Positions 2,357 through 47,604 of a DNA stretch of 64,000 bases are shown here, piece by piece. The notes beneath the pieces were generated by a model, which worked only from the letters and a program-made list of their open reading frames with translations, searched no databases and was not told the DNA's origin. The DNA is taken from contig OY761158.1 of the NCBI GenBank assembly GCA_963664405.1, positions 1,824,001-1,888,000 of the forward strand, written 5' to 3'. The DNA is from Thermoanaerobaculia bacterium. Lineage in GTDB: Bacteria > Acidobacteriota > Thermoanaerobaculia > Multivoradales > Multivoraceae. The first letter of the stretch is position 1. The number at the start of each line of letters is the position of its first letter. The position numbers were made by a program, and so were the translations under genes.

Positions 2357-2989
2357 CTATGGCAACCGGATCAATTCACCGCTGGCATCGATGGAGACCT
2401 CGACTTCTTTGGCGACGCGCAACAGCAGCCTGCTCGGGTCCTCGAGACCCCACTCGACATAAGGCACCAAGAAAGTGGTTCGCGCGTGTAACCGACCCGC
2501 CCTGGAGTCGAGGGTCACCGGCAGGGTGAGTGAGTGCTCCTCCCCGTGGATCCGCAGTCGCGCCAGCACCCGGATGACGCCGCCACTCCCCGGCTCGAAG
2601 CTCCCGACCAATCCATCGACAATGAGCACGAGCTCCGGGAAATCATCGCTCTCCAGCACCCGCTGATGCATCTGCTTGTCTCGCCTGGCGTTCCCGGTCT
2701 CGAAAGAACGCGCGTCGACCACCACCTGACCTTCTGCCTCGCCGCGCTCGGTATCGATGCGAAGGCTCCCTCGAAGCGCCTGCGCCGTGCCGTGGACCTT
2801 GTGGAGAGTGGAATCGACCACGAACCTGATCTCGGTGGCGGCGACGTCGAGATCGAAGCTGTAGGTCTGCGCCGCGAGTGAGCTCGGCACCACGAGCGCA
2901 AGAAAAGCAAGGACCCAGCTTCTAGACCAGCGTTTCCAAAGTTCGCGCACATATCTCGGCCCCTTCGGACACGCTGGTCTAGTCTTCAT
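2357..2989 (-). CDS. YceI-family periplasmic lipid/polyisoprenoid-binding protein; signal peptide carries an in-frame MITE remnant
   Basis: IRFVVDSTLHKVHG, SFETGNARRDKQM and LRIHGEEH motifs. Removing the 57-bp insert restores MKTRSWVLAFLALVVPSSLAAQ. Confidence 0.85.
   Translation of the reverse strand: MKTRPACPKGPRYVRELWKRWSRSWVLAFLALVVPSSLAAQTYSFDLDVAATEIRFVVDSTLHKVHGTAQALRGSLRIDTERGEAEGQVVVDARSFETGNARRDKQMHQRVLESDDFPELVLIVDGLVGSFEPGSGGVIRVLARLRIHGEEHSLTLPVTLDSRAGRLHARTTFLVPYVEWGLEDPSRLLLRVAKEVEVSIDASGELIRLP
2922..2982 (-). mobile_element. internally deleted MITE copy (family A), CTAG-flanked, net +57 bp (19 codons) inside yceI
   Basis: CTAGACCAGCGTTTCCAAAGTTCGCGCACATATCTCGGCCCCTTC...ACGCTGGTCTAG; same ends as the copies at 33714, 37951 and 40616. 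Confidence 0.9.
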
Positions 2990-3973: not shown

Positions 3974-4387
3974 TGAGCGGTCACGGTTTCGTGGACACCA
4001 AGTTAAGCCCCATCGGGGCAGTTCCTATTCTGCATCAGTTCGGGTAGTCAGCTTCGGACGAGGCTGTGCGAGGTTCGGGGAGCGCAGCCTCCCTTCGGAT
4101 CCGACCGCCGGTCGCGCGTGAGTTCACGCTGCCCCTTCGAAGGCCTCGGGGCTCAGGAATCCGAGCGTCGAATGCTGGCGTCTCAGGTTGTAGAACACTT
4201 CGAGGTAAGAAACCGCTTCGTCGTGAGCTCGCTGACGAGTCTCGAAGGGTCGGTCCCAGACCTCGGTCTTGAGACTGTCGAAGAAGCTCTCCAAGACCGC
4301 ATTGTCATAACAATTTCCGACGCCGGACATGCTGCAGCGAAACCGCAGCTCAGCCAGCCGATCCTGGTAAGCCTTCGAGGCGTACTG
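3974..4387 (-). pseudogene. IS3-family right-end remnant with transposase C-terminus
   Basis: QYAS..Y...SMSGVGNCYDNAVLESFFDSLKTE...FYNLRRQHSTLGFLSP is an IS3 integrase-core tail; IS3-like end TGAGCGGTCACGGTTTCGTGGACACC at 3974. Confidence 0.85.
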
Positions 4388-4394
4388 CTTGGGT

Positions 4395-5792
4395 TCAAGG
4401 AGTCGTCGCAGCGTTGCCTTGGTGAGCAGAGTGTACAAGCTCATCGAAGACTTCGGCAGGGGTTCTCCAGCCGAGGGTCTTGCGGGGTCGGCCGTTGAGT
4501 GCGAGCGCGACCGCGGCGAGGTCGTCGCAGGAGTATCTGACAAGGTCGGTGCCCTTCGGGAAGTACTGGCGTAGTAGTCCGTTGGTGTTCTCGTTGGTGC
4601 CCCGCTGCCAGGGGCTGTGCGGGTCGCAGAAGTAGATCGCGAGGCCGGTATCGACGCGGAGTTGAGCGTGTTGAGCCATCTCGGCGCCCTGGTCCCAGGT
4701 CAAGGACCGGCGGAGCTGCTCGGGCAGCGTGGTGATTGACACCGCGATCGCGTCACGGACGGCTTCGGCGCCGTGCCCGGCGAGGGCCGGCCCGTTCTTC
4801 ACCCTCGATTCGGTCCCGTGCCCTTCCATGCGGGGCAGGTGCAGCAGCATCGTGAACCGCGTAGTGCGTTCGACGAGGGTCCCGATCGCTGAGCTCTCGA
4901 GCCCGACGATCAGGTCGCCTTCCCAGTGACCCGGCACGGCCCTGTCGCCGGCTTCGGCGGGGCGTTCGCTGATCATGATCTCCGGAGTTACAAATTTCTT
5001 GCCTCTCCCCCGGGTTCGCGCATGCGGCACTCGTAGCGCTCGCCCGGTTCGCAGGCACGCGACGAGCTCGCGTTTGAGGGCTCCTCGACCTTGGATGTAG
5101 AGCGCTTGGTAGATCGCCTCGTGAGAGATCCGCATCGACTCATTATGGGGGAAATCAATCCGAAGCCGGTTCGAGATCTGCTCCGGACTCCAGGATTTCG
5201 CCCAACGCCGATCCTGGCGACGGCCGTGCCGACGGCCGATCCAACGCACATCCGGACCCGGCACCAGCTCCCCGTCAGGCCTTGCGATCACGCCGGCGAG
5301 GCGGTTCTGCACGTACTCACGCAAGGCATCGTTCGCGGCAAGCTTGGAGACCTTCGGACGGCTGGCGCGCCGCTCCGCGTGCCACTGCGCAGTCGTGGCC
5401 CGATAAGTTACGGCACGGCTGCGAGTCGCCGCGTTGCGGCGCAGCTCCCGCAAAATCGTCGACGGTGAACGACCCAGGCGGCGAGCGATCTCACGTACCC
5501 CAACATGCTGAGCGTGAAGGATGGCGATCTCTTCACGCTCGGCGAACGACAGATAACGCCCCGACACCGGAGCCAACGAGATAGGTCGCATTCCACCAGC
5601 TTGCCTGAACCATCTCGACCCGACAGCCGGCGACACCCCAGCCTCTGTTGCGGCGTCCTCGCTGGACGCCCCACGAGCGATCGTCTCCCAGAACCGGATC
5701 CGGTCCTCGCGCCGCGCTGTCGAGGGCCGGCCAGGTGACCGCATCTGGCCACGCATCGCTCGAATCGCACCCTGACACTTGCCAACTCCCAT
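4395..5792 (-). CDS. IS30-family transposase
   Basis: LSFAEREEI, HTH (RSPSTILRELRRN), WSPEQI, GHWEGDL, LTWDQG.EM, PWQRGTNENTNGLLRQYFPKG and LNGRPRKTLGW motifs. Confidence 0.95.
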   Translation of the reverse strand: MGVGKCQGAIRAMRGQMRSPGRPSTARREDRIRFWETIARGASSEDAATEAGVSPAVGSRWFRQAGGMRPISLAPVSGRYLSFAEREEIAILHAQHVGVREIARRLGRSPSTILRELRRNAATRSRAVTYRATTAQWHAERRASRPKVSKLAANDALREYVQNRLAGVIARPDGELVPGPDVRWIGRRHGRRQDRRWAKSWSPEQISNRLRIDFPHNESMRISHEAIYQALYIQGRGALKRELVACLRTGRALRVPHARTRGRGKKFVTPEIMISERPAEAGDRAVPGHWEGDLIVGLESSAIGTLVERTTRFTMLLHLPRMEGHGTESRVKNGPALAGHGAEAVRDAIAVSITTLPEQLRRSLTWDQGAEMAQHAQLRVDTGLAIYFCDPHSPWQRGTNENTNGLLRQYFPKGTDLVRYSCDDLAAVALALNGRPRKTLGWRTPAEVFDELVHSAHQGNAATTP

Positions 5793-5955
5793 CGAAACAC
5801 CTCCATCACGAGATGTTGCGACGACCAGTTGAATCCGCCGTGGACACCTCCCTTTGCATACGGGCCTGGCCCTACGATCGGTCGGCATGTTCAGAGATCG
5901 GCCCTTCATTGGAGCGACCGCTATGCTAGCCTCTCGTGTTCGCAAGGGCTCAATT

Positions 5956-7080
5956 ATGACAGAGGTGGAAAGCTCGACAGGCTCAGACGCCCAGACCGCG
6001 ACCCGGGCGGGCTCCTTGTGTGTGGAGCCGTTCCTGCATCTCCAACCAGGGCGAATCTACAACCCTCTGACCGACCTCGCCGTCGAGCCTCTCGACCCCG
6101 GGTACACCGAGCTGCAAGCCCTCGCCCTCGGCCAAACGAGCGCCGCCGCCTTGCCTGCCGGACTGCGAACGAGTCTGATAGAGACAAAGTGGTTGGTCGA
6201 AGACGGCCCCGAGCTGGCAAGCCGCTTTCTTCTCAAGTACGTATCCCTCGAAGCCCACTCGGTCTGCAATCAAGGGTGCTATTTCTGCCCGGTCTCGATC
6301 GAGCGCAGAGAAGACCACTTCATGCCAATGGAGCTCTACGACGAAATCGCACGCCAGCTCGGGGAGCTGAGAGGGACGATCGAAGGCGTGTCGATGATCA
6401 ACTACAACGAGCCGACCGTCGACAAGCGCTTTCTCGAGCAGGTCGGGGTGCTCAAGGGGTACGGCCTCCCGCCGGCAGTGTTGACCAACGGCACCGGCCT
6501 CACTCCCAAGAGGGTAGATGCGCTCATCGAGATGGGCGGACTGGTTTACCTGTCGGTCAATCTCTCCACCTTGGACCGCGAGCGCTATGCCGCGGATCGC
6601 GAAGGCGATCACCTCGAGCTGGTGCTCTCTAATCTCGACTACATGAAAGATCTGGCCCTTGCCGAGACCATGGAAATCGTCGTTCTCGGGGTCGGCGACG
6701 AGATTCACCGCGACGACTTCACGAAGATCGCCGAACGCTTCGCCGACAGCCGTTTCGTGGTCAAGTTCTATGAGGTCATGAACCGCACGGGAAACGTTCC
6801 TTTGGGCTTGAAGCCGGAGCAGCGAGTCAAGAAGCTCCATGGCTGTGACCAGACCGGCTCCCGGCCTCTTCAGTGGCTCCACATCACTCCGCGAGGCGAG
6901 TGCGTCATCTGCTGTCAGGACTACCACGAGCACTACGTCGTTGGAGATCTGACCAAGCAGTCTCTTATGGAGGTCTTGACCGGGCCTGAGATCGCCAGAA
7001 TGCGCCGCTGGACATACGGCCTCGAAGAGGCTCCCGACGACTTCATCTGCCGCGACTGCATCTACGCTTTGACACGATGA
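5956..7080 (+). CDS. radical SAM protein with C-terminal SPASM/twitch domain
   Basis: CxxxCxxC (CNQGCYFC), NYNEPT, TNGTGL; C-terminal C...CC...C..C cysteines. Confidence 0.88.
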   Translation: MTEVESSTGSDAQTATRAGSLCVEPFLHLQPGRIYNPLTDLAVEPLDPGYTELQALALGQTSAAALPAGLRTSLIETKWLVEDGPELASRFLLKYVSLEAHSVCNQGCYFCPVSIERREDHFMPMELYDEIARQLGELRGTIEGVSMINYNEPTVDKRFLEQVGVLKGYGLPPAVLTNGTGLTPKRVDALIEMGGLVYLSVNLSTLDRERYAADREGDHLELVLSNLDYMKDLALAETMEIVVLGVGDEIHRDDFTKIAERFADSRFVVKFYEVMNRTGNVPLGLKPEQRVKKLHGCDQTGSRPLQWLHITPRGECVICCQDYHEHYVVGDLTKQSLMEVLTGPEIARMRRWTYGLEEAPDDFICRDCIYALTR

Positions 7081-25377: not shown

Positions 25378-26451
25378 ATGAAATGGTCCTGGAGTCTCGG
25401 CAAGATCGCCGGGATCGAGCTCAAGGTCCATGCGACCTTCTTCCTGTTGGTCGCCTGGGTGGGCTGGACTCACTGGGCGGACGGCGAATCGCTGGCGGCG
25501 GCGATCGCGGGCATTACTTTTATTCTCAGTCTCTTCGCCTGCGTGGTCCTGCACGAGCTCGGCCACGCCTTGACGGCGCGCCGCTACGGAATCCGCACCC
25601 GCGACATCGTGCTGCTACCGATTGGGGGCGTAGCCCGACTCGAGCGCATTCCTGAGGACCCGCGCCAAGAGCTCTGGGTCGCGGTGGCGGGACCCGCCGT
25701 CAACGTGGTCATCGCCACAGTTCTCTTCACCATCATCTCCTTGACCGGATCCTGGCAGCCGGTGGGCGGGCTCACCGTCAGCGGCGGTTCGTTTCTCGAG
25801 AGAATCGCCATCGCCAATGTCATTCTGGTCATCTTCAATCTGATCCCCGCCTTTCCGATGGACGGTGGACGCATGCTTCGCGCTGTTCTGGCGATGCGCC
25901 TCGAGTACGTAAAGGCAACCCAGATCGCGGCGACCGTCGGTCAGGGCCTCGCCTTCGTCTTCGCTCTGATCGGTCTCTGGGCGGCGCCGTTCCTACTCTT
26001 CATTGCCTTCTTTGTCTGGATCGGCGCCAGCCAGGAAGCCAGTATGGTCCAGATCAAGCACGCCCTCGGGGGCATCCCGGTCGGCCGGGTGATGATCACC
26101 GAGTTCGTCACTCTCCACCCGGAAGAACCGCTGACACGCGCAATAGCCCTGACTCTGGCGGGGTCCCAGAAAGACTTCCCTGTCGTTGTCGGAGACCGGG
26201 TAGTGGGCGTGCTCACGCAGTCGACATTGATGCGTGCGCTGGCGGAGAAGGGGGAGCACGCCCAGACTGCCTCGGTGATGGAGCAGAGTTTCGAGCTCGC
26301 CGACGTCTCGGAAATGATCGAGCCGGTCTTCATCCGCCTACGGGCACGTAGATGCTCAACCCTGCCGGTACTCGAAGCGGGCCGACTGGTCGGTCTCCTC
26401 ACGCTGGAGAACGTGGGCGAGTTCCTCAGCCTTCAATCTGCGATGCGCTAG
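25378..26451 (+). CDS. site-2 protease (M50) with CBS domains
   Basis: HELGH, AGPAVN, NLIPAFPMDGGR and two CBS-like C-terminal repeats. Confidence 0.92.
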   Translation: MKWSWSLGKIAGIELKVHATFFLLVAWVGWTHWADGESLAAAIAGITFILSLFACVVLHELGHALTARRYGIRTRDIVLLPIGGVARLERIPEDPRQELWVAVAGPAVNVVIATVLFTIISLTGSWQPVGGLTVSGGSFLERIAIANVILVIFNLIPAFPMDGGRMLRAVLAMRLEYVKATQIAATVGQGLAFVFALIGLWAAPFLLFIAFFVWIGASQEASMVQIKHALGGIPVGRVMITEFVTLHPEEPLTRAIALTLAGSQKDFPVVVGDRVVGVLTQSTLMRALAEKGEHAQTASVMEQSFELADVSEMIEPVFIRLRARRCSTLPVLEAGRLVGLLTLENVGEFLSLQSAMR

Positions 26452-26615
26452 TGGGCCGTAACACTCGAACGTTTAGTGGCTGAGTGAGTCATTCGTGGTC
26501 GAGATCAAGGCGCGCTGACGCAGGCATAGCGGGGACTATGTCGGGGAAGCGTAACGCAGAGATCGGCCGCGAGGGCCGCTCAGGCGCTAAACGTTTGGGT
26601 GTTACGGTCCACTAA
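26448..26615 (+). mobile_element. MITE family B: ~36-bp TIRs, TA duplication, same hairpin core as family A
   Basis: C-TA-GTGGGCCGTAACACTCGAACGTTTAG ... CTAAACGTTTGGGTGTTACGGTCCAC-TA-A; core GGCGCGCTGACGCAGGCATAG...CTATGTCGGGGAAGCGTAACGC. Begins at the stop codon of the M50 gene. Confidence 0.85.
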
Positions 26616-33713: not shown

Positions 33714-33878
33714 CTAGACCAGCGTTTCCAAGGTTCGTGCACATAGCTCGAGGTCATTCTGTTCGCTGGCCAGGCGCGGCGACGCAGGCATATTGGGCAA
33801 TATGTCGAGGAGGCGCAACGCCGCCAGCGGGCAGAAGGGGCCGAGATGTGTACGCGAACTTTGGAGACGCTGGTCTAG
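33714..33878 (+). mobile_element. MITE family A, intergenic copy at a stop codon (net +161 bp)
   Basis: CTAGACCAGCGTTTCCAAGGTTCG...CGAACTTTGGAGACGCTGGTCTAG; the right CTAG contains the TAG stop of the ABC ATPase gene. Confidence 0.92.
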
Positions 33879-34855
33879 AGATCGAAATGGCAGGCCACGG
33901 TGTGGGCTTGCTCGCCGGGGGCCGCGACTTCGCGTAGCGTCGGCACCTCGGTACGACAGCGGTCCTCGGCATGGGGGCAGCGGGGGTGGAAGTGGCAGCC
34001 GGTCGGCGGATCGATCGGCGACGGGACGTCACCCTCGAGGACCTGGAAGCCGGAGCGCTTGGTAGGGTCCGGAGCCGGGATCGCCGCAATCAGGGCCTGG
34101 GTGTAAGGGTGTTTGGGGCGTTCGTAGACGTCGTCCGCGCCCGCCGTCTCGACGATCTTACCGAGATACATGATGGCGATGCGATCGGAGACGTGCTTTA
34201 CCACTGCCAGATCGTGAGAGATGAAAAGGTAGGAGAGCCCGAGATCCTTCTGCAACTCGAGCATCAAGTTGAGGATTTGACTCTGAATCGAAACGTCGAG
34301 GGCGGAAACCGGCTCGTCACAGACAACTAGCTTGGGATCGAGCGCGATCGCGCGGGCAATGCCAATGCGCTGGCGCTGCCCGCCCGAGAACTCGAAGGGG
34401 AAGCGATCCAACGAGGTCTCCGGCAGTCCGACCTTCGCAAGGAGTGCGTGGACAAGCTCTTTTCGGTCCTTTTCGGTACCGACCTTGTGGACGACGTAGG
34501 GCTCCTCGAGGATCTTGGCCACGCTATGCCGAGAGTTGAGCGAGTCGGCGGGGTCCTGAAAAATCATCTGCAGCTCACGCCGGACGCCTTTCAGCTCGCG
34601 ACGGCCCAGTTTCACCAAGTCGGTTCCATCGAAGACGACACTCCCGGCCTGGGGACGGAGCAGACGGACGATCGAGCGGCCCAAGGTGGACTTGCCGCAT
34701 CCGGACTCCCCGACCAAGCCGAGGGTCTCCCCCGCACCCACTTCCAAAGCAACATCATCGACGGCCTTACAGACCGCGGTCGCGGTCATGAACACACCAC
34801 CGCGCACCGGGAAGTAGGTCTTGAGGCCGTTGACCTCGAGCAGTGGGGAGCTCAT
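33875..34855 (-). CDS. oligopeptide ABC transporter ATP-binding protein (OppF-like)
   Basis: GESGCGKST, FSGGQRQR, CDEPVSALD and oligo_HPY tail (HPYT, GCHFHPRC). Confidence 0.93.
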   Translation of the reverse strand: MSSPLLEVNGLKTYFPVRGGVFMTATAVCKAVDDVALEVGAGETLGLVGESGCGKSTLGRSIVRLLRPQAGSVVFDGTDLVKLGRRELKGVRRELQMIFQDPADSLNSRHSVAKILEEPYVVHKVGTEKDRKELVHALLAKVGLPETSLDRFPFEFSGGQRQRIGIARAIALDPKLVVCDEPVSALDVSIQSQILNLMLELQKDLGLSYLFISHDLAVVKHVSDRIAIMYLGKIVETAGADDVYERPKHPYTQALIAAIPAPDPTKRSGFQVLEGDVPSPIDPPTGCHFHPRCPHAEDRCRTEVPTLREVAAPGEQAHTVACHFDL

Positions 34856-35907
34856 GCGTCGCCGTCTCTCCGCGTGCCGGCGATCTCCCGCCAGCGAAAG
34901 CAGCTGACCTGGTGATCTCCCTCCACCACCTGGAGCTCGGGCAGCTCCGCGGCGCAGCGCTCTTCGCGGTGCGGACAGCGATTCTCGAAACGACAGCCCG
35001 AGGGCAGGTCCAGCAGGCCCGGCACCATACCCTCGATCGTGTGAAGAGGCTGTTTGCGCGGATTTTCCAATCGGGGAATGGCCTCGAGTAGGCCGCGCGT
35101 GTAGGGATGACGCGGCTCGGCAAAGATCTCTTCTACCGACCCGGTCTCGGCGATGCGCCCCGCATACATGACCACCACGTCATCGCAGGTCTGAGCGATC
35201 ACTCCCAGATCGTGAGTAATGAGGAGGATCGACAGCCCCATCTCTTCTTGCAAGTCGCTCATCAGCTTCAAGACCTGAGCCTGGATGGTCACATCCAACG
35301 CGGTGGTCGGCTCGTCGGCGATGATGAGAGCTGGGCTATTGGCCAGCGCGATGGCGATCACTACGCGCTGGCGCATGCCGCCGGACAGCTGATGAGGGTA
35401 CTCGGCGTAACGGATCTCCGGCGACGGGATGCCGACCTGCCCCAGTAGCTCGATCGACCTGCGCATTGCATCCTGCGCTGTCAGGTCCTGATGCAACAGC
35501 AGCGCCTCGGAAAGCTGTCGACCTACCGGGTGCACCGGATTGAGCGCCGTCATCGGCTCCTGGAAGATCATGCCGATGCGAGCGCCGCGGATCTTTCCCA
35601 TCTCCTCCAGAGACAGATCGAGCAGATTCTCGCCGTCGAGGAGCACTTCGCCACCCAGAATCTGCCCCATGGGCTGGGGCAGAAGACGTGTGATCGAAAG
35701 TGCGGTGACCGTCTTGCCACAGCCCGACTCCCCCACCAAGCCAACCGTCTTGCCGCGAGCGACTTTGAAACTGACGCCGTCGACAGCGTTCACCCGCCCC
35801 ACATCGGTGTCGAAGGCGGTGACCAGGTTGCGCACCTCGAGAAGATCGTCCGAGGTGGCGCTCCGATCTGCGGTTGCGTCACTCACTCCCGGGCCGGTAC
35901 TTGTCAT
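34852..35907 (-). CDS. oligopeptide ABC transporter ATP-binding protein (OppD-like)
   Basis: [29 protein letters not shown] and GCRFENRC. Confidence 0.93.
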
Positions 35908-38143
35908 AGGTGAAGACGCCGGGCGGGAATGTCTTCCCTGACCGCTTCGCCGCCCGGGTCTCTTCCTTCAAATCCTCGTCGATCCAGTGCACCCAGTGAT
36001 CCTCGTAGTGGCCGGCCAGCTTCACACTGAAATCGTCGGGCCAACCCACCCAGCGCCACGACCCCATGCGCAGAAAGGGCTGCACGAAGCCGGGAATGAA
36101 GATCGCCGCTTCGTCGACGATCTCCTCCATCTGACGCGACAGCTCGAGCATCTCCCCTGCATCGTCCGAGCCACGATAACGCTCGATCAGCGGATCGAGC
36201 TCACGGCTGGCGAAGGAGTGAAGGTTGTTGGTCTGGGTCTTGACCTTGCGTTCCGGGTTCACAGACCCGTCGGCAAGAAACGCTTTATCGTAGGCGTTCA
36301 CCGAATGGTAGGTCTCCCAGTAACGCGGGTACATCTCCGGACTGACCGCGAAAGCGGTGAAGACGAGATCGTGCTTCTTCTCTTGCGCCTTCTTGAACGC
36401 AGCGGTGGCGTCGAGGACCTCGAGCCGGTACTCCAGACCCGCCTGCGCTGCTTCTTCTCTCAGGATGGTGAGGATGTCCTTGAAGCTCTGGTAACCGGTG
36501 GTCAAGGTAAAAGAGAGGCGCTGCCCTTGGGCGTTGACCAGGATGCCGTCAGACCCACGCTCGTGGAACCCGGCCTTGGCAAAGCTCTCGAGGGCTTTCT
36601 CGACCGAGTAGGAGCGAGCCTCGAGCGTAGGATGAGTGAACTCTCCGTACCCATCCGAGGAGGTCCGCATGCGGGTGTAGGCACCGCGGAAGTACTTTTC
36701 GATCACCAAGTCCCAGTTGGTGGCGAAGTGGAGACCCTGGCGAATGTCGCGGTCCTCCAGCAGCGGCTGCGCCGTGTTGATCCAGAGTCCCCAAGTCGGC
36801 CGCGGGACGTCGTTATAGAACTCGTGCTTGTGAACATAGCCGTCCCGAACCAGAGGATGGTCGTCGGCGAGCTTGTCGTACCAATACTCGGGCTCTCGCA
36901 TCCGCGAACTATCCAGCTCCCCACGCTTGAACACCTCGAAGGCCTTCGCTTTGTCGCGAATGATCACGAAGTGAATGCGCTCGGGGTTGAACCTGTAGCG
37001 CCAGAACTTGTTCTCCCTCGCCCACCAGTTGTCGACGTGGGTGAAGGTGAGCGATCGTCCTTTGTGAATGTTCTCTGGACGGATCTCATAGGCACCCGTT
37101 GTCGGCATGAAACGCCACTGATAACGGTCGACGAAATCGTCGCCTAGACTCTTGAAGAAGTGCCGCGGAAGAGGCCGTAGCTCGAGGACGCGAGCGTTCA
37201 TGTCGGGCTTGGCCTCGGGCACCGAGACCGAGAAAGTGAGCTCGTCGTAGCGGGCTACCTCGGTGAAGTTGCGGTTGAAGAAATTGTTCGAATACGGCGC
37301 ACGGATGTATTTCGACTGGTAGAAGAAGAACGCGAAGAGAGCATCATCGGTGGTGACCGGATGCCCGTCCGACCAGCGAGCAGCGGGGTTGAGTCGGACA
37401 TACACCGTTCTCGTCTCGCGATCGATCGCCCACTCCTTCGCCAAGGCGGGGTAGTAGCGGTGCCCGTTGGGCCCGATATTGGTTACATTGGGATGGCGTT
37501 GGCCATAGGTGTAGAGCGTTTCGTCCTGTAGATAGCTGCGGAACGAGCCGTTGGCATCGGGGCCAACGGTACGTAGGGTGCGCGGAAAATCCGCCAGCGC
37601 CATAAATAGGGTGCCGCCCCTCTTGGCCTCCGAAGACCCGATATCGGGCAGGTCCATTCCGTCGTCCCATTCGAGGTCGGCGGGAATGTCCTCCGGTGTC
37701 CCGAAGCGAAAGAGCTTGGGAAACTCTCCTGCCGCCTGCCGCGAGTCGAGCTCCTCCTGGGTGATCTCTCCGCGCTCGAAGGCCTCGCGTACTCGAGGAG
37801 GCATCGAGACCTTGGTGCGGTAGAACTCCTCGATCTCCGCGGTGTTGTCTCTCCCTAGGTCGGGAAAGTCCATGTCTGCGCCCGCGTCGCCTGCTCCACA
37901 ACCGATCAGGAATGACCCCAGCGACACCGCCGAGATGAAGGTCCAGAGCGCTAGACCAGCGTTTCCAAAGTTCGCGCACATATCTCGGGCCCTTCTGCCC
38001 GCTGGCGTCGTTTCGCCTCCTCGACATATTGCCCAATATGCCTGCGTCAGCGCGCCTAGCCAGCGAACAGAATGCCCTCGAGCTATGCAGCACGAACTTC
38101 GGAAACGCTGGTCTAGATCTCGATTTGGCATTTGTGCCCTCAT
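35879..38143 (-). CDS. family-5 extracellular solute-binding lipoprotein (YejA-like) with a 54-aa in-frame MITE insert in its signal peptide
   Basis: AKRGGTL, ARWSDGHPVT.DD, TGAY, NTAQPLLEDRDIRQ. Removing the insert gives MRAQMPNRDLALWTFISAVSLGSFLIGC (lipobox). Confidence 0.85.
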   Translation of the reverse strand: MRAQMPNRDLDQRFRSSCCIARGHSVRWLGALTQAYWAICRGGETTPAGRRARDMCANFGNAGLALWTFISAVSLGSFLIGCGAGDAGADMDFPDLGRDNTAEIEEFYRTKVSMPPRVREAFERGEITQEELDSRQAAGEFPKLFRFGTPEDIPADLEWDDGMDLPDIGSSEAKRGGTLFMALADFPRTLRTVGPDANGSFRSYLQDETLYTYGQRHPNVTNIGPNGHRYYPALAKEWAIDRETRTVYVRLNPAARWSDGHPVTTDDALFAFFFYQSKYIRAPYSNNFFNRNFTEVARYDELTFSVSVPEAKPDMNARVLELRPLPRHFFKSLGDDFVDRYQWRFMPTTGAYEIRPENIHKGRSLTFTHVDNWWARENKFWRYRFNPERIHFVIIRDKAKAFEVFKRGELDSSRMREPEYWYDKLADDHPLVRDGYVHKHEFYNDVPRPTWGLWINTAQPLLEDRDIRQGLHFATNWDLVIEKYFRGAYTRMRTSSDGYGEFTHPTLEARSYSVEKALESFAKAGFHERGSDGILVNAQGQRLSFTLTTGYQSFKDILTILREEAAQAGLEYRLEVLDATAAFKKAQEKKHDLVFTAFAVSPEMYPRYWETYHSVNAYDKAFLADGSVNPERKVKTQTNNLHSFASRELDPLIERYRGSDDAGEMLELSRQMEEIVDEAAIFIPGFVQPFLRMGSWRWVGWPDDFSVKLAGHYEDHWVHWIDEDLKEETRAAKRSGKTFPPGVFTYDKYRPGSE
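37951..38116 (-). mobile_element. MITE family A, full copy, net +162 bp (54 codons), in frame in a coding sequence
   Basis: CTAG at both ends, ~21-bp TIR GACCAGCGTTTCC(A/G)AAGTTCG, central CATATTG-GG-CAATATG hairpin. Confidence 0.93.
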
Positions 38144-38153
38144 AGGTCGCCAG

Positions 38154-39245
38154 TCACATATAGACCGTGAACTTCTTCGGGTCGAAGGCCTCACGCACGG
38201 CCTCGCCGACGAAGTTCACCAGGGTCAAGATGAAGACCAGGGTGACGAAAGCGGAAGAGATGATCCAAGGGGAAGTGGTCAGGCTCGCCGTTCCCTGCTT
38301 GAGCAGCTCGCCGATCGAGGGAGTCGGCGGCGGAAGCCCCCAGCCGAGGAAGTCGAGGGCGGTCACGGCGACGATCGCGTTGATGACGGTCAGCGGCACG
38401 AAGGTCACGATCGTCGAAAGCACATTGGGAATGATGTGGCTGAAGATGATCCGCGAAGTTGAAGCACCGAGAACGATGGCAGCCGCCGTGTAATCCCTCT
38501 CCTTCTCGCGATAGGTGGCGGTGCGCATGTAGTAGGTCATCGATGTCCACGAGAAGAGCACCATGATGGCGAGCAGAATCGTGATTCGGGTCGGGATATC
38601 GAAGCTGGTCGGAATCACCGAGAAGACGATGATCACCATGTAGAGGAAAGGGATATTCGACCAGATCTCGATCAGACGCTGCACAAGAAGATCGAAGACG
38701 CCTCCGAAATAGCCCATCATGCACCCTAGAGAAATCCCGATCAGATAGGTCAGCGACATGAAGGCCAGCGCAAAAAGAATAGCGGTGCGAAAGCCGAAGG
38801 CGAGGCGCGCAAAGATGTCGCGGCCGGTCGAGTCGGTGCCCAGATAGTGCCTCGAGGCCAGCGAAGGCGGCGCAGGCTTGAACACTCCTTCGTAGGCATC
38901 GTTCTCATAGGCGTCGTAGGGAACGAGAGGCATGAGCACCAGGTTCTCGCCGCCTTCGCGCTCGAATCTCCGTTTGAGATCGCGATAGTCGACCGGAGTC
39001 AGCGCATCTACACCCACCGATCCGAACTCGTCACCCAGCCGCACCCGAGTGTAGGTGGGGAACGACCACTCACCCTCGTAGCGCACCGCCAGTGCACGAC
39101 TATTGATGAACACCTCACCCACCAAAGAGAGAGCGATAAAGACCACCAGGATCAGAAACGAAAAATAGCCACGTCGTATTTCTCTGAAGCGCTTCAACTT
39201 CTTTGCAGTAAGAGGGTTGAGCTTCATCGCCCAGGTCCGGCTCAA
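38154..39245 (-). CDS. peptide ABC transporter permease (YejE/OppC-like)
   Basis: HYLGTDSTGRDIFARL, EAA-like loop DYTAAAIVLGAS and LDFLGWGLPPPTPS. Confidence 0.9.
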   Translation of the reverse strand: MSRTWAMKLNPLTAKKLKRFREIRRGYFSFLILVVFIALSLVGEVFINSRALAVRYEGEWSFPTYTRVRLGDEFGSVGVDALTPVDYRDLKRRFEREGGENLVLMPLVPYDAYENDAYEGVFKPAPPSLASRHYLGTDSTGRDIFARLAFGFRTAILFALAFMSLTYLIGISLGCMMGYFGGVFDLLVQRLIEIWSNIPFLYMVIIVFSVIPTSFDIPTRITILLAIMVLFSWTSMTYYMRTATYREKERDYTAAAIVLGASTSRIIFSHIIPNVLSTIVTFVPLTVINAIVAVTALDFLGWGLPPPTPSIGELLKQGTASLTTSPWIISSAFVTLVFILTLVNFVGEAVREAFDPKKFTVYM

Positions 39246-40615: not shown

Positions 40616-40781
40616 CTAGACCAGCGTTTCCAAAGTTCGTGTGCAATAGCTCGAGGTCATTCTGTTCGCTGGCCAGGCGCGCCGACGCAGGCATATTGGG
40701 CAATATGTCGAGGAGGCGAAACGCCGCCAGCGGACAGAAGGGGCCGAGATATGTGCGCGAACTTTGGAAACGCTGGTCTAG
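40616..40781 (+). mobile_element. MITE family A, full copy (net +162 bp) in a divergent intergenic region
   Basis: CTAGACCAGCGTTTCCAAAGTTCG...CGAACTTTGGAAACGCTGGTCTAG. Confidence 0.93.
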
Positions 40782-40846: not shown

Positions 40847-42832
40847 ATGACCCAACTAGACCAGCGTTTCCAAAGTTCGTGCTGCATAGCTCGAGGTCAT
40901 TCTGTTCGCTGGCTAGGCGCGCTGACGCAGGCATATCGGGCAGCCGCCATCGACTCGTATTCGCGGCCAATTCTCACCTCTGTAGGCCCCCTGCTCGCCC
41001 TGGTGCTCGGTGTGACGGCGCTGGCGTGCAGCTCCGGCGAGCCCACCGCTCCACCGGCGGAGACCAGCTCGAGCTCGGAGAGGCCGGCTCCGAATCCACT
41101 GCGCAGCGCCTACTTCGGCGACCTTCACGTGCACACTCGCTATTCGATGGACGCCTACATCTTCGATGTCAGGGCCTCGCCCGACGACGCCTATCGATTC
41201 GCCAAGGGCGAGCCTCTCGATCATGTCAGCGGCCATCGCATGCAGCTCCAGACTCCCTTCGATTTTCAGGCGGTCACCGACCACGGCATCCTGCTCGGCG
41301 CTCTGCCGGCAATGGATGACCCGGAGGACCCGCTCTACAACGAGCCTATCGCCAAGGAGCTGCGTGAGCTGGGGCCGGCGGAAGGGTTTCAGCGCGGCCG
41401 GGAAGCCTTTGAAGGCGGAGAGTTCGAGCAGATGGATTACTCCCATGCCACGCGCTCGGCCTGGCAGCGGATCATCGAGGCGGCCGAGCGTCATAACGAT
41501 CCCGGCCACTTCACCACCTTCGTCGCCTATGAGTACACCTCGACCGCCCCTGATCAGGGCAACCTCCACCGCAACGTGATCTTTCGCGGCAGCGAGGCAC
41601 CCGAAATGCCGCTCAGCTCCGCGGACTACCCCGACCCGGAGGATCTGTGGCGCTGGCTCGACGACCTACGAGCCCAGGGCATCGAAGCGTTGGCGATTCC
41701 ACACAACTCGAACGGCAGCAACGGCCAGATGTTCCGCCTCGAGACCCTGTCCGGCGAGCCTCTCGACGCCGACTATGCCGATCTGCGCATGCGCAACGAG
41801 CCTTTAGTCGAGGTCACCCAGGTCAAGGGTACGTCCGAGGTACACCCGCTGCTGTCCCCAAACGACGAGTGGGCTGACTTCGAGATCTTCCCCTACCGCA
41901 TCTCCACCCGGCTGGACAGCCAGCCGGCCGGCAGCTACGTCCGCGATGCCTACGTCAGCGGGTTGATCCTGGAGGAGACCAAGGGTTTCAATCCCTTCCG
42001 CTTCGGTCTCATCGGGTCGACCGACACCCACAACGCGGCAGGGACCCCGGACGAGTGGCACTTCCACAGCAAAGTCGGCGCCCGCGACGGTACCCCTCAG
42101 CGCCGCGGATCGGTGCCCCTGGACGAGCCCGGAGAGGACGGCGAGCCGGCCTACGTCGATGGCTATTTCCACCTCTGGGGCGCCGCCGGTGTCGCCGGCG
42201 TCTGGGCGGAGGAGAACACCCGCGAGTCGATCTACGATGCTTTCCGGCGCAAGGAGACCTTCGCCACGACCGGGCCTCGCATCCAAGTCCGATTCTTCGC
42301 CGGTTACGACCTCGCGGAGGATCTCGCCTCGGCTCCCGACAAGGTAGCCAGGGCCTACGAAGGTGGAATACCGATGGGGGCCGATCTGAGCGCCGATGGC
42401 GAGCGAGCGCCGCGTTTTCTGCTGTGGGCGATTCAGGACCCCAACAGCGCTCCGCTCCAACGTCTGCAGATCGTCAAGGGCTGGGTAGACGACGAGGGGG
42501 GCCACGATCAGGTTTTCGACGTCGCCTGCTCCGACGGCGCGCAGCCCGACCCGGAAACCCATCGCTGCGCCGACAACGGCGCTAGCGTGGATCTTTCTGA
42601 TTGCAGCTTCTCGCGTGATTCCGGCGCGGCGGAGCTGAGCGCGGTATGGAGTGACCCCGGCTTCGAGCCCGCCCAGCACGCCGTCTACTACCTGCGAGTG
42701 ATCGAGAACCCCACTTGCCGTTGGTCGACATGGGACGCCTTGAGGGCGGGTGTGGAGCCGCGCGCCGACTTACCTACGACCATCCAAGAGCGAGCCTGGT
42801 CGTCGCCGATCTGGTTCGTTCCCGGAGGCTGA
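40847..42832 (+). CDS. DUF3604-family PHP-like lipoprotein with a half-MITE in frame at its N-terminus
   Basis: AYFGDLHVHTRYSMDA, VTDH, YEYT, NLHRNV, IPHNSN, EVTQVKGTSE and QERAWSSPIW; lipobox ALAC; SD AGGGGG before ATG 40847. Confidence 0.85.
   Translation: MTQLDQRFQSSCCIARGHSVRWLGALTQAYRAAAIDSYSRPILTSVGPLLALVLGVTALACSSGEPTAPPAETSSSSERPAPNPLRSAYFGDLHVHTRYSMDAYIFDVRASPDDAYRFAKGEPLDHVSGHRMQLQTPFDFQAVTDHGILLGALPAMDDPEDPLYNEPIAKELRELGPAEGFQRGREAFEGGEFEQMDYSHATRSAWQRIIEAAERHNDPGHFTTFVAYEYTSTAPDQGNLHRNVIFRGSEAPEMPLSSADYPDPEDLWRWLDDLRAQGIEALAIPHNSNGSNGQMFRLETLSGEPLDADYADLRMRNEPLVEVTQVKGTSEVHPLLSPNDEWADFEIFPYRISTRLDSQPAGSYVRDAYVSGLILEETKGFNPFRFGLIGSTDTHNAAGTPDEWHFHSKVGARDGTPQRRGSVPLDEPGEDGEPAYVDGYFHLWGAAGVAGVWAEENTRESIYDAFRRKETFATTGPRIQVRFFAGYDLAEDLASAPDKVARAYEGGIPMGADLSADGERAPRFLLWAIQDPNSAPLQRLQIVKGWVDDEGGHDQVFDVACSDGAQPDPETHRCADNGASVDLSDCSFSRDSGAAELSAVWSDPGFEPAQHAVYYLRVIENPTCRWSTWDALRAGVEPRADLPTTIQERAWSSPIWFVPGG
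40856..40942 (+). mobile_element. MITE family A, left half only, starting at codon 4 of the DUF3604 gene
   Basis: CTAGACCAGCGTTTCCAAAGTTCGTGCTGCATAGCTCGAGG...GACGCAGGCATATCGGGCA, then diverges at the central loop. Confidence 0.88.
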
Positions 42833-43577: not shown

Positions 43578-44326
43578 CTCGTCACTATACATAGCTGGTA
43601 GCCTACGCCTCGCTCGAGGAGGCTACGGCTCTCTGCACCGCAGCCGTTGAACCATAGCCGATGGAAAAACGTGCACCCACTCCCCTTCTGACCGAAGACG
43701 AGCACGATCCTGTGCACCTCGAACGTGAGCACGGAACGTCGCCGATCTTTCTCACCTGTGACCACCCTGGGCACCGTCTCCCACGCGAGCTCGGCGATCT
43801 CGGTCTGAGTCCCCTGGAGCTTCGCAGGCACATCGGTTGGGATATCGGGGCACTTGGTATCGCCACCCGCCTGTCGAAGGAGCTCGACGCCACCCTGGTA
43901 GCGCAGCTTTACTCCCGACTGGTCATCGACTGCAACCGCAGAGTCGACGTTCCGAGCTCAATCCCCACTCGCAGCGAGAACACCGTCGTGCCGGGGAACC
44001 TCGATCTCGACCCCGGTGCCAGAAAAGCGCGCGAGCGGGCGATTCATGCTCCTTACCACGATACCGTCTCACGACTTCTCGACACGCGGCGAGACCAGCA
44101 GAGGCCCACAGTGCTCATCGCCGTCCACAGCTTCACACCCATCTACGACGGCGTATCGCGACCCTGGCACATCACTTTCTCGACCGACGAAGAGCGTTCG
44201 GTGGTGGATCCGATGCTCGACTGGCTCAGAGCCGAGTCCGACCTCGTGGTCGGCGACGGCGAGCCCTTCACGGTCGAGGACGTGGACTACACCCTTCCCG
44301 TTCACGGTATTCGCAGAGGCATACCG

Positions 44327-46270
44327 CTTGGGTTCAAGGGGTCGTCGCAACGTTGCCTTGGTGAGCAGAGTGTACAAACTCATCGAAGACTTCGGCAGGG
44401 GTTCTGAGCGGTCACGGTTTCGTGGACACCAAGTTAAGCCCCATCGGGGCAGTTCCTATTCTGCATCAGTTCGGGTAGTCAGCTTCGGACGAGGCTGTGC
44501 GAGGTTCGGGGAGCGCAGCCTCCCTTCGGATCCGACCGCCGGTCGCGCGTGAGTTCACGCTGCCCCTTCGAAGGCCTCGGGGCTCAGGAATCCGAGCGTC
44601 GAATGCTGGCGTCTCAGGTTGTAGAACACTTCGAGGTAAGAAACCGCTTCGTCGTGAGCTCGCTGACGAGTCTCGAAGGGTCGGTCCCAGACCTCGGTCT
44701 TGAGACTGTCGAAGAAGCTCTCCAAGACCGCATTGTCATAACAATTTCCGACGCCGGACATGCTGCAGCGAAACCGCAGCTCAGCCAGCCGATCCTGGTA
44801 AGCCTTCGAGGCGTACTGCTTGGGTTCAAGGAGTCGTCGCAGCGTTGCCTTGGTGAGCAGAGTGTACAAGCTCATCGAAGACTTCGGCAGGGGTTCTCCA
44901 GCCGAGGGTCTTGCGGGGTCGGCCGTTGAGTGCGAGCGCGACCGCGGCGAGGTCGTCGCAGGAGTATCTGACAAGGTCGGTGCCCTTCGGGAAGTACTGG
45001 CGTAGTAGTCCGTTGGTGTTCTCGTTGGTGCCCCGCTGCCAGGGGCTGTGCGGGTCGCAGAAGTAGATCGCGAGGCCGGTATCGACGCGGAGTTGAGCGT
45101 GTTGAGCCATCTCGGCGCCCTGGTCCCAGGTCAAGGACCGGCGGAGCTGCTCGGGCAGCGTGGTGATTGACACCGCGATCGCGTCACGGACGGCTTCGGC
45201 GCCGTGCCCGGCGAGGGCCGGCCCGTTCTTCACCCTCGATTCGGTCCCGTGCCCTTCCATGCGGGGCAGGTGCAGCAGCATCGTGAACCGCGTAGTGCGT
45301 TCGACGAGGGTCCCGATCGCTGAGCTCTCGAGCCCGACGATCAGGTCGCCTTCCCAGTGACCCGGCACGGCCCTGTCGCCGGCTTCGGCGGGGCGTTCGC
45401 TGATCATGATCTCCGGAGTTACAAATTTCTTGCCTCTCCCCCGGGTTCGCGCATGCGGCACTCGTAGCGCTCGCCCGGTTCGCAGGCACGCGACGAGCTC
45501 GCGTTTGAGGGCTCCTCGACCTTGGATGTAGAGCGCTTGGTAGATCGCCTCGTGAGAGATCCGCATCGACTCATTATGGGGGAAATCAATCCGAAGCCGG
45601 TTCGAGATCTGCTCCGGACTCCAGGATTTCGCCCAACGCCGATCCTGGCGACGGCCGTGCCGACGGCCGATCCAACGCACATCCGGACCCGGCACCAGCT
45701 CCCCGTCAGGCCTTGCGATCACGCCGGCGAGGCGGTTCTGCACGTACTCACGCAAGGCATCGTTCGCGGCAAGCTTGGAGACCTTCGGACGGCTGGCGCG
45801 CCGCTCCGCGTGCCACTGCGCAGTCGTGGCCCGATAAGTTACGGCACGGCTGCGAGTCGCCGCGTTGCGGCGCAGCTCCCGCGAAATCGTCGACGGTGAA
45901 CGACCCAGGCGGCGAGCGATCTCACGTACCCCAACATGCTGAGCGTGAAGGATGGCGATCTCTTCACGCTCGGCGAACGACAGATAACGCCCCGACACCG
46001 GAGCCAACGAGATAGGTCGCATTCCACCAGCTTGCCTGAACCATCTCGACCCGACAGCCGGCGACACCCCAGCCTCTGTTGCGGCGTCCTCGCTGGACGC
46101 CCCACGAGCGATCGTCTCCCAGAACCGGATCCGGTCCTCGCGCCGCGCTGTCGAGGGCCGGCCAGGTGACCGCATCTGGCCACGCATCGCTCGAATCGCA
46201 CCCTGACACTTGCCAACTCCCATCGAAACACCTCCATCACGAGATGTTGCGACGACCAGTTGAATCCGCC
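44327..46270 (-). mobile_element. 1944-bp chimeric IS30-family transposon, copy 2
   Basis: Same ends and internal IS3 remnant as copy 1; 3-bp TSD CCG (44324-44326, 46271-46273). Confidence 0.93.
44826..46223 (-). CDS. IS30-family transposase
   Basis: Same protein as 4395-5792 except STISREL versus STILREL. Confidence 0.95.
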   Translation of the reverse strand: MGVGKCQGAIRAMRGQMRSPGRPSTARREDRIRFWETIARGASSEDAATEAGVSPAVGSRWFRQAGGMRPISLAPVSGRYLSFAEREEIAILHAQHVGVREIARRLGRSPSTISRELRRNAATRSRAVTYRATTAQWHAERRASRPKVSKLAANDALREYVQNRLAGVIARPDGELVPGPDVRWIGRRHGRRQDRRWAKSWSPEQISNRLRIDFPHNESMRISHEAIYQALYIQGRGALKRELVACLRTGRALRVPHARTRGRGKKFVTPEIMISERPAEAGDRAVPGHWEGDLIVGLESSAIGTLVERTTRFTMLLHLPRMEGHGTESRVKNGPALAGHGAEAVRDAIAVSITTLPEQLRRSLTWDQGAEMAQHAQLRVDTGLAIYFCDPHSPWQRGTNENTNGLLRQYFPKGTDLVRYSCDDLAAVALALNGRPRKTLGWRTPAEVFDELVHSAHQGNAATTP

Positions 46271-46389
46271 CCGCGAGCCTTGATCGAAGTGCGACAAGAC
46301 CTGGTTGCGACCGAGCAGGGACAAGAAGAGTGGGCCGATCGCCTAGCCACTCTGCTCCGGCATGCCCTCGATCGGATTGGATCCGGCTG

Positions 46390-47604
46390 ATGAAAAGCGC
46401 CAGCTCACCGGTTCTCGCCGTCGCCGTTAGCGGTCTCCTTCAACTCGCCTTCGTCTCCTGCACCCCGCGCACCGCGTCCGGCCCGGCAACGACAGATGAG
46501 CTGGAAGCGAATGAGGCGGACTTGCAAAGACTACGGGCGCTCCCCTACGTCGCCTGGGACGAAGGAGCCGACCCCGAGCTGCGCGGGGTGCTCTCTTGGG
46601 ACGAGAGCCGGGCCTGGTCCGGATACAACCTCTACACCAACGACGTCGACGAGGCGTACCTCATGGACATGAGTGGGCGACGGGTGCATCGCTGGAAGCT
46701 GCCGCGGACTCGAAATGGCCACTGCGAGCACGTCGAGCTGTTGGAGGACGGCGAGATCCTTGCTGTCTGCGTCAACGATGGGGCCTTTCACCTCGACTGG
46801 GCCTCTCGCGTGCTGGCAGAAACCACGATCGGGGTGCACCACGACGCCGCTGTCATGCCCGACGGCAGGCGTGTAATTCCATTTCACGACGGCAGATACA
46901 TCCATCGACGTCGCCTGGTCTGGTTCGACGGTCTCGCCTCGCTGAACAGCGACCTCGAGCTGGTCGACCGCTGGTCGAGCTTCGAGCGACTCGACGACCT
47001 CACTCCCCATCACCCACGATCTCCACTCGAGAAGCCGGGGTCCTGGAGCCGTCTGTTGTCGAACACCAGTGACTACTACCACCTCAACTCGGTCGAGTCG
47101 CTGCCGGCCACAGATCTCGGTGCACGAGACCCGCGCTTTCGCCCCGGACAGCTGATGCTCTGCTTTCGCAACACCGACCTCGTAGTAATCCTCGATCAGG
47201 ACAGTCACGACGTGGTGTGGAGCTGGGGTCCTGGCGAGCTTGATGGGCCGCATATGCCGACCCTACTCCCCAGCGGCAACATTCTCGTCTTCGACAACGG
47301 CACTCGGCGGCGCTACTCGAGAGTCGTCGAGATCGACCCCACAACCAAGGAGGTGCGCTGGGAATACGAGGGGGAGCCCCGCGATTCGTTCTTCTCTGCG
47401 TGGCGCGGGTCGGCTCAGCGTTTGGTCAACGGCAACACACTCATCTGCGAAGCCGATAGAGGGCACGCCTTCGAAGTCACGCCAGAGGGCGAGACCGTAT
47501 GGGAGTTCTGGAATCCGGAGCTCGGCAAGAAGGGCCGTAAGCGCATCTACCGCATGACTCGTGTCGCGCCATACCGCCTGGGATCACGACTGCCTGCTAT
47601 TTGA
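46390..47604 (+). CDS. arylsulfotransferase (ASST)-family lipoprotein
   Basis: Lipobox FVSC; HHD, YYHLNSV, WSWGPGELDGPHMP, LVFDNG...YSRVVE, GSAQRL.NGNTLI and VWEFWNP. Confidence 0.8.
   Translation: MKSASSPVLAVAVSGLLQLAFVSCTPRTASGPATTDELEANEADLQRLRALPYVAWDEGADPELRGVLSWDESRAWSGYNLYTNDVDEAYLMDMSGRRVHRWKLPRTRNGHCEHVELLEDGEILAVCVNDGAFHLDWASRVLAETTIGVHHDAAVMPDGRRVIPFHDGRYIHRRRLVWFDGLASLNSDLELVDRWSSFERLDDLTPHHPRSPLEKPGSWSRLLSNTSDYYHLNSVESLPATDLGARDPRFRPGQLMLCFRNTDLVVILDQDSHDVVWSWGPGELDGPHMPTLLPSGNILVFDNGTRRRYSRVVEIDPTTKEVRWEYEGEPRDSFFSAWRGSAQRLVNGNTLICEADRGHAFEVTPEGETVWEFWNPELGKKGRKRIYRMTRVAPYRLGSRLPAI

Follow-up and report, generated by a model that had tools for sequence, protein, structure and literature searches.

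A MITE copy in the gene for a YejA-like binding protein is probably a recent IS630-type insertion that lies in frame within the signal peptide, is translated through and is tolerated rather than useful. The insertion, here called copy C, sits five codons into a lipoprotein signal peptide. The 64-kb stretch of DNA analysed here, which we call the window, holds four copies besides this one and one related element, element F (Table 1).

Copy C spans 166 bp, with a CTAG at each end (37951-37954 and 38113-38116) and 158 bp between them, for a net gain of 162 bp (54 codons); these coordinates agree with the sequence-only reading that first described the insertion. Its terminal inverted repeats, 20-27 nt long, pair for about 27 nt with a single mismatch among the first 20 positions, and the whole is an imperfect palindrome from end to end that RNA folding predicts to form a single long hairpin (-109.1 kcal/mol, z -13.2). 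Six-frame translation found no stop in the CTA-GAC and xCT-AGA frames of either strand, while the third frame of each strand begins with the target's own TAG, all as had been claimed. The four internal stops of copy C all fall in the two frames that this TAG already closes. Four open frames are found in 0.14% of 5,000 dinucleotide shuffles, in about 0.15% of 20,000 structure-preserving permutations and in 1.2% of all 166-nt stretches in the window. The 18-nt end motif (up to three mismatches) occurs eight times in the window against an expected 0.04, a count that none of 100 shuffles reached, and CTAG adjoins all eight occurrences, with a search pattern that did not include CTAG. Nothing in the window reached the gathering score of an Rfam family; around the element, a match to a plant miRNA hairpin (36 bits, threshold 90) was rejected as reflecting a generic long hairpin.

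Table 1 Coordinates of the MITE copies, the host gene and its translation signals within the window
Feature	Position	Strand	Remarks
MITE copy C, both flanking CTAGs counted	37951..38116	-	End1 to End2 runs in the direction of the host gene; adds 162 bp
End2 terminal inverted repeat, copy C	37955..37977	+	Proximal to the gene body
End1 terminal inverted repeat, copy C	38090..38112	-	One mismatch to End2 in first 20 nt
YejA-like solute-binding protein gene (SBP_bac_5)	35879..38131	-	Two permease genes upstream, two ATPase genes downstream
Native translation start	38129..38141	-	GAGGG 38141-38137, 5-nt spacer, ATG 38131-38129
Signal-peptide hydrophobic core and lipobox (LALWTFISAVSLGSFLIGC)	37898..37954	-	Cys codon 37900-37898; directly downstream of the element
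Possible internal start in End2	37979..37996	-	AGAAGG 37996-37991, 9-nt spacer, in-frame ATG 37981-37979
Copy A	2922..2982	-	Internal-deletion derivative, adds 57 bp; hairpin -33 kcal/mol
Copy B	33714..33878	+	Adds 161 bp (1-bp deletion); intergenic, between convergent genes
Copy D	40616..40781	+	Adds 162 bp; divergent intergenic region between DUF2277 gene and DUF3604 gene
Copy E	40856..40942	+	Half element, End1 arm only, broken at the hairpin apex
Element F (related)	26448..26615	+	Same central core, different terminal repeats; adds 164 bp

Its sequence marks the element as a transposon that is non-autonomous and of the IS630/Tc1-mariner type, with a length of about 160 bp plus a presumably duplicated TA within CTAG. 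The IS630 assignment, to which the sequence-only reading had pointed, is supported by one terminus: the first 20 bases of End2 together with the adjoining CTAG (37951-37954) are identical at 24 of 24 positions to one end of an insertion sequence of the IS630 family that lies in a different genome (locus L049). That insertion sequence contains a 392-aa ORF with a DDE_3 match (5.8e-21) and HTH domains, and it shares 70% identity with transposases annotated as IS630-family. An element with this annotation, carried on a Mesorhizobium plasmid, is also CTAG-flanked and has similar ends, and among loci with the common terminal repeat CTAG adjoins seven of eight ends (again with a pattern lacking CTAG). 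The window itself contains no IS630 transposase or autonomous partner (best tblastn E value 0.76). IS630 is described as preferring TA within CTAG (PMC2170065). IS5-type elements are reported to target CTAG/YTAA with a 4-nt duplication (PMC3189936), so the target site alone is insufficient to assign the parent family. At the flanks of the MITE, the sequence fits duplication of either TA or the whole CTAG.

The host gene encodes a protein whose homologues are recorded as 'microcin C transport system substrate-binding protein', and its frame of 754 codons is intact. The native start, 12 nt upstream of the element, is untouched by the insertion; an additional in-frame ATG lies at 38143-38141 on the minus strand. 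When copy C is removed in silico, MRAQMPNRDL joins ALWTFISAVSLGSFLIGC, which confirms that the insert is in frame and that excision restores a lipoprotein signal. Lipoprotein-type N-termini were present in eight of nine homologues inspected. The orthologue in a relative, P0002, provides the empty site that the earlier reading had proposed to look for, at the protein level: it is identical to the binding protein at 674 of 694 residues (97%) with zero gaps, begins MTNRDLRLWTF... at a Met equivalent to the native ATG and has an uninterrupted signal peptide. In the 120 homologues listed, coverage of the first 320 residues never exceeds 86%. Because a 97%-identical orthologue lacks the element, the insertion is recent, and on this sequence comparison copy C entered after the lineage split from the relative that encodes P0002.

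The remaining copies show where the family resides. Copy A follows codon 4 of a YceI-like exported-protein gene, in frame (xCT-AGA frame), and its target CTAG includes the TAG stop of the upstream gene. The right CTAG of copy B contains the TAG stop of an ATPase gene (33875-34855), and element F, which is flanked by one CTAG and one CTAA, overlies the TAG stop of the gene that spans 25378-26451. The DUF3604 lipoprotein gene (ATG at 40847) carries copy E in frame behind its fourth codon; the gene has a good AGGGGG site before its ATG and stays open through the half element into the lipoprotein signal; no ATG, GTG or TTG lies between copy E and the hydrophobic core. Copies A and E are both deletion derivatives, and both preserved the frame. 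All three coding copies in the window lie in genes with signal peptides, within the first 4-6 codons. A further in-frame copy lies elsewhere in the same genome, in a 214-aa ORF (P0123). All six complete copies examined at their flanks (A, B, C, D, L013-1 and L013b) have CTAG on both sides.

Beyond the window, a scan of genome contigs with the 18-nt degenerate end motif, a permissive pattern, returned at least 69 loci. Among the loci listed in a BLAST search with copy C, family copies were found in only two other assemblies (L013 and L004). Six listed loci have the terminal end in common (L049, L069, L040, L025, L015 and L059), and six gave short BLAST matches (L056, L068, L053, L044, L008 and L058). 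The plasmid collection gave no match to the element. Searches with the encoded peptide, for which the query was the End1-to-End2 peptide of the CTA frame only, found four proteins among 5.8 billion clusters and five matches in a representative set of 1.84 billion, where P0122, P0123 and P0125 are true matches and P0124 and P0126 show 30-33% identity. Pfam gave no match to the encoded peptides in the carriers P0122 and P0123. In Alphaproteobacteria, a sister MITE family shares the left end; its members add 203-218 bp and contain stops in nearly every frame. In the literature we found no description of MITE copies inside cleavable signal peptides; the matches listed for the end motifs and the peptide word seem, from their titles and abstracts, unrelated.

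We favour the following account of these observations. An IS630-type MITE would have entered the gene for the binding protein of a YejABEF-like ABC importer, at a CTAG that lies five codons into the signal peptide. With the native ribosome-binding site and ATG intact 12 nt upstream and the frame open, translation most likely still starts there, and the ribosome would cross the element to reach the hydrophobic core and lipobox. The pre-protein would carry an N-terminal stretch that is positively charged and 54 residues longer, and because the added residues would be discarded with the cleaved signal peptide, the mature lipoprotein would be unchanged. The internal ATG may act as a second start. 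The element would bring the gene no benefit and would merely be tolerated. Surviving copies would be those at gene edges, whether at a stop codon, between genes or in the opening codons of a gene for an exported protein, and the likeliest reason for tolerance in the last of these is that the extra residues are removed with the signal peptide. With time, in-frame deletions would shorten the coding copies and weaken their hairpins, as copies A and E suggest. Copy E supports translation through the element, as it lacks End2 and the ATG there, yet the DUF3604 gene is open. On the other side, a hairpin of -109 kcal/mol beginning 16 nt past the start codon could hinder translation. Pure tolerance also leaves unexplained the stop-poor frames, which are rarer in shuffles; some selection for harmless residence is therefore possible.

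Two alternatives concern what the insertion did to the gene. The sequence-only reading had pointed to an in-frame ATG near the end of the element, and one is indeed present in End2 (37981-37979, minus strand). We consider it unlikely that this ATG displaced the native start, in which case the product would begin MCANFGNAGLALW... and the element would be a 5' leader with its own ribosome-binding site. [quoted passage not shown] However, the native GAGGG and ATG are intact upstream with the frame open from there, the stem of the hairpin sequesters the internal site, and the N-terminal stretch that would result has no positive charge. The ATG is missing in the L013 subfamily and replaced by GTG in copy B, copy E has no End2 and its gene is still intact, and a consensus-based scan of 37700-38400 found no promoter or terminator, including no sigma-70-like promoter. 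It is still less probable, and in our view very unlikely, that the insertion silenced or crippled the gene and that the open frame is the leftover of a recent event in which decay has not begun. The recency of the insertion and the strong hairpin that separates the binding-protein gene from the permease genes would fit such an outcome, but the 754-codon frame is intact and the protein retains its ungapped near-identity to P0002. Moreover, the older, partly deleted copies A and E kept their frames, which would be unexpected if such insertions killed genes.

Two further alternatives concern the family as a whole. Selection may have rendered its translation harmless, as has been suggested for Rickettsia palindromic elements, with a length divisible by three and stop-free frames permitting it to colonise CTAG sites inside genes; we regard this as rather doubtful. 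The length of 162 bp recurs in five of eight full-length copies (C, D, L013-1, L013b and the P0123 copy) and persists in three subfamilies in spite of two 1-nt indels that offset each other, but the other full-length copies add 161, 163 and 164 bp. Three or more open frames are rare in dinucleotide shuffles (2-3.4%) and in structure-preserving permutations (about 2%), and four are rarer still, as given above for copy C, whose internal stops all fall in frames that were closed anyway; against this, 15.6% of real 166-nt stretches in the GC-rich window have at least three of the four frames open. The claim that the element is open in all four usable frames holds for copy C but not for the family: the consensus has three open frames and a TGA in the remaining one, copy D and the L013 copy each have a TGA in one of the four, and copy C has lost this stop by a single T-to-G change, in a frame unused by its host gene. 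Stop-creating substitutions are not depleted (3 of 28, against 12.9% expected), a weak test that is confounded by an ill-defined consensus and by indels. The stop-rich alphaproteobacterial sister family, with its different lengths, and the P0123 copy, in frame 17 codons before the end of its ORF, speak for shaping by selection, whereas the rarity of the encoded peptide in both protein collections speaks against it. Placement also counts against it. Entry into coding CTAG sites without a frameshift or stop, as originally inferred, is seen in copies C, A and E and the P0123 copy, but all five window copies lie outside gene interiors, where 24 of the 58 free CTAGs are found (Fisher p = 0.08, from five copies and crude ORF calls), and the varying lengths of 161-164 bp fit it poorly. 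Entry in either orientation is not seen, as all four coding copies face the same way.

A more specific version, that the family is adapted to the first few codons of exported-protein genes, also seems improbable to us. It can cite the 162-bp length held by offsetting indels, the three to four stop-free frames that shuffles rarely produce, the outward ATG and GTG at one end that cover both usable frames, and the uniform direction of gene-proximal copies. If it were true, the N-terminus of a cleavable signal peptide would offer a mobile element a safe harbour within coding sequence; because cleavage removes the added residues, residence there would cost next to nothing.

Under the reading that we prefer, tolerated read-through of a recent insertion, the type of event is already known and copy C is a fresh example of it. 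It adds a case from Acidobacteriota in which an in-frame MITE can be dated, with an empty site in a 97% relative and a parent family of the IS630 type, and the older copies A and E illustrate how such inserts decay by in-frame deletion. With three insertions at signal-peptide N-termini in 64 kb, the data suggest a simple rule for where a coding insertion is tolerated. There is also a consequence for annotation, as gene callers would place the starts of such genes inconsistently: the DUF3604 gene is called from the ATG upstream of its half element, and an entry for the binding protein with the long N-terminus was not among the matches listed in the homologue and peptide searches.

Compared with known elements, the MITE resembles IS630 insertion sequences and their MITEs in having terminal inverted repeats that adjoin CTAG. 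Relative to the IS630 element at L049, it lacks a transposase gene, its interior is unrelated, and both of its ends resemble only one end of that element. IS5-type MITEs such as MITEPsy1 are alike in having CTAG on both sides (CTAG and CTAA in element F), but the terminal repeats here match an insertion sequence whose transposase is of the IS630 type rather than the IS5 type. The neisserial REP2 repeats are similar in that one end of the MITE has a Shine-Dalgarno-like motif with outward ATG and GTG. The differences from REP2 are that this start motif varies within the family (intact in copies C, D and A, altered in B and missing from the L013 subfamily), that a very stable stem encloses it and that the scanned interval showed no promoter consensus.

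Rickettsia palindromic elements are described as palindromic repeats of about 150 bp that lie in frame and without stops in protein-coding genes, mostly inside the genes and at many positions of the protein (PMC10969869). By that description they share with the present family an in-frame, stop-free residence in genes (copies C, A, E and P0123). The window copies differ in lying at gene edges only, in a small sample of five, and the MITE differs from those elements as described in its clear terminal repeats, target duplication and identifiable transposase family. Fusions of repeat-borne open frames to the ends of chromosomal genes are called 'not unusual' (PMC10969869; PMC3184786), and the intragenic ERIC, BOX and Anabaena MITE fusions are alike in placing such frames at the 5' or 3' ends of genes. 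The copies described here differ from those fusions in lying within cleavable signal peptides, and in doing so three times in 64 kb.

The element in the YejA-like solute-binding lipoprotein gene (copy C) is an imperfect palindrome throughout, its ends forming inverted repeats (End1 and End2) with one mismatch across the first 20 nt, and its RNA is predicted to fold as a single hairpin (-109.1 kcal/mol, z -13.2; none of 200 shuffles folds as well). Six-frame translation bore out the sequence-only reading of this copy, with no stops in the CTA-GAC and xCT-AGA frames of either strand and an in-frame ATG at 37981; the third frame on each strand opens with the target's own TAG.

Copy C belongs to a repeat family. 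Allowing up to three mismatches, the window contains eight occurrences of an 18-nt end motif (0.04 expected), each adjoining CTAG, and these fall into five copies, A to E. A scan of the genome contigs in the collection with a loose pattern of the end motif returned at least 69 loci, against which copy C was compared by BLAST; among the matches listed, the family proper was found in two, L013 and L004. L013, an Acidobacteriota MAG, holds a full copy at 89% identity (L013-1) and, beside it, a subfamily copy (L013b). Six family sequences retain the hairpin, and 37 of its 62 pairs show compensatory changes.

Coordinates of the family members and neighbouring features (window positions unless a locus is named)
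Feature	Coordinates	Form or content	Added (bp)	Site
Copy A	2922-2982	internal-deletion form	57	after codon 4, YceI-like gene
Copy B	33714-33878		161	TAG stop of a gene
Copy C	37951-38116	full length; CTAG at both extremities, 166-bp span	162 (54 codons)	after codon 5, binding-protein gene
Copy D	40616-40781	full length	162	between divergent genes
Copy E	40856-40942	single arm, broken off at hairpin apex		after codon 4, DUF3604 lipoprotein gene
Element F	26448-26615	CTAG on one side, CTAA on the other; central core common with family, terminal repeats differ	164	TAG stop of a gene
L013-1	L013 1997-2162	full length	162	ends 12 nt ahead of an ATG
L013b	L013 2356-2521	full length; other terminal repeats	162	
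L004 copy		truncated by contig edge; interior one base longer	163	
P0123 copy		full length	162	17 codons ahead of the end of the ORF
Sister family, L025	L025 1997-2543	copies head to tail, CTAGs in common		
Split ATPase	33875-35907	ATPase of YejABEF-like cluster as two adjacent genes, each ABC_tran + oligo_HPY		
Mobile-element patch, copy 1	3885-6056			
Mobile-element patch, copy 2	44316-46439			

Element F and L013b represent two subfamilies that have a core of about 50-100 nt in common with the main family (77-84% identity) and clearly different terminal repeats, the interior being better conserved than the ends. The usual MITE pattern is the reverse, with ends better conserved than the interior. 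The subfamily of L013-1 and the P0123 copy differs from the main family by two offsetting 1-nt indels, a deletion and an insertion separated by 52 nt, so that the length stays 162 bp and the stretch between them is shifted in frame.

Translation neutrality in four frames, as originally proposed, describes copy C and not its family, as the reverse xCT-AGA frame of copies D and L013-1 is interrupted by a TGA and lengths vary among copies. Copy C lost that TGA by a single T-to-G change, in a frame unused by its gene. The stop-poor frames of the family are nevertheless not trivial: of 5000 dinucleotide shuffles, 2-3.4% had at least three of the four frames open, as had about 2% of 20000 structure-preserving permutations, and all four were open in about 0.15% of either set. 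Among real 166-nt stretches of the 62% GC window, the corresponding values were 15.6% and 1.2%. Stop-creating substitutions (3 of 28, versus 12.9% expected) give a weak count, with an ill-defined consensus and indels.

Copy C lies in a minus-strand gene cluster encoding two BPD_transp_1 permeases, an SBP_bac_5 binding protein and two ABC ATPases, and homologues of the binding protein are named microcin C transport (YejA-type) substrate-binding protein in their sources. The insert has left the native start untouched, 12 nt upstream (GAGGG, five bases, ATG at 38131). Excision gives MPNRDL-ALWTFISAVSLGSFLIGC, and the best homologue, P0002 (674 of 694 residues identical, gap-free), has the N-terminus MTNRDLRLWTFISALSLGSFLIGC. 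The insert is absent from all nine homologues read, eight of which begin with an ordinary lipoprotein signal; in homologue P0005 the called start falls inside its signal. Coverage of the first 320 residues is at most 86% in each of the 120 homologues listed. The P0002 N-terminus and the other insert-free homologues show that the lipoprotein signal had been correctly reconstructed by excision. Given these insert-free homologues, including P0002, the insertion is, on sequence comparison, recent, the empty site being seen in protein sequence.

Since the gene retains its native start and an open frame, ribosomes would by default be expected to start at the native ATG and read on through the insert, yielding a precursor with an N-terminal stretch 54 residues longer, which would be removed along with the signal peptide. 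The internal AGAAGG-ATG of copy C, which lies within the hairpin stem and is not conserved in the family, may act as a second start. The gene carrying copy E supports translation through the insert. This copy has lost End2 and its ATG and has no special fold (z 0.36); the gene is open, and called, from ATG 40847, with AGGGGG ahead of it, and no ATG, GTG or TTG occurs between the copy and the hydrophobic core. None of the 22 listed N-termini of DUF3604 homologues (P0128-P0149) contains the element peptide, and 21 have short lipoprotein-type signals, the one exception being a kinase fusion (P0147). Copy E ends exactly at the apex of the family hairpin with the reading frame kept, as if a deletion had run from the loop into the 5' end of the gene. 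The deletion derivatives A and E both stay in frame, and their hairpins are weaker (-33 kcal/mol in A, absent in E). This fits an insert that is tolerated, though at some cost, and is gradually eroded in frame.

The host genes of A, C and E all encode exported proteins, and the CTAG of copy A doubles as the stop of the upstream gene. By crude ORF calls, 24 of the 58 CTAG sites not in elements fall deep within a gene, and none of the five copies does (one-sided Fisher test, p = 0.08, or 0.05 when F is counted). All coding copies run End1 to End2 in the reading direction. The four copies located at the start of a single gene or shortly ahead of it (A, C, E and L013-1) all point End1-to-End2 into the gene, a uniformity with a chance of about 1 in 8; copy D has gene starts on both sides. 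CTAG is scarce in the whole window (70 sites, where base composition predicts 221 and a second-order Markov model 118), and 12 of the 70 are in or at the elements.

The end and CTAG alone are common to six further loci among the matches listed. At locus L049, an end identical at 24 of 24 positions, CTAG included, closes a 1.3-kb element whose 392-aa ORF matches DDE_3 (5.8e-21) and helix-turn-helix domains and shares 70% identity with plasmid genes that bear the annotation 'IS630 family transposase'; one such Mesorhizobium element has CTAG on its flanks and similar ends. IS630-family elements duplicate TA, and IS630 favours TA within CTAG (PMC2170065). Despite the use of CTAG/YTAA by IS5-type MITEs as well (PMC3189936), the terminal-repeat match points to IS630 as the parent. 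No such IS630-type transposase was found within the 64-kb window. Alphaproteobacteria contain a sister MITE family with the same left end, an added length of 203-218 bp and stops in almost all frames; its CTAG-flanked copies occur in MAGs at L025, L015, L069, L059 and L040. The window also holds a duplicated mobile-element patch, in which an IS30-like transposase ORF (HTH_38 + rve) adjoins an IS3-type integrase fragment; the two copies, 40 kb apart, include a 300-nt stretch that is 100% identical.

Proteins carrying the element peptide are few. A search with one of the four possible encoded peptides gave three real matches in a 1.84-billion representative set and four proteins in a 5.8-billion-cluster collection. 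The four were the window's own DUF3604 protein (P0127), a HExxH-motif ORF of the same genome (P0123), what looks like a wrong-frame ORF (P0122) and an epimerase with a garbled C-terminus (P0125).

In the open-access text searched, we found no paper that describes this MITE family or reports MITEs within the N-termini of signal peptides. MITE-borne open frames fused in frame to genes are described as 'not unusual' in a 2024 review (PMC10969869), with RPEs at the extreme; fusions at the 5' and 3' ends of genes and start-donating repeats (REP2) are known too (PMC10969869, PMC3184786). In-frame MITE-gene fusion is thus a known kind of event, of which the family of copy C is an additional member; what deserves a genome census is the signal-peptide pattern.
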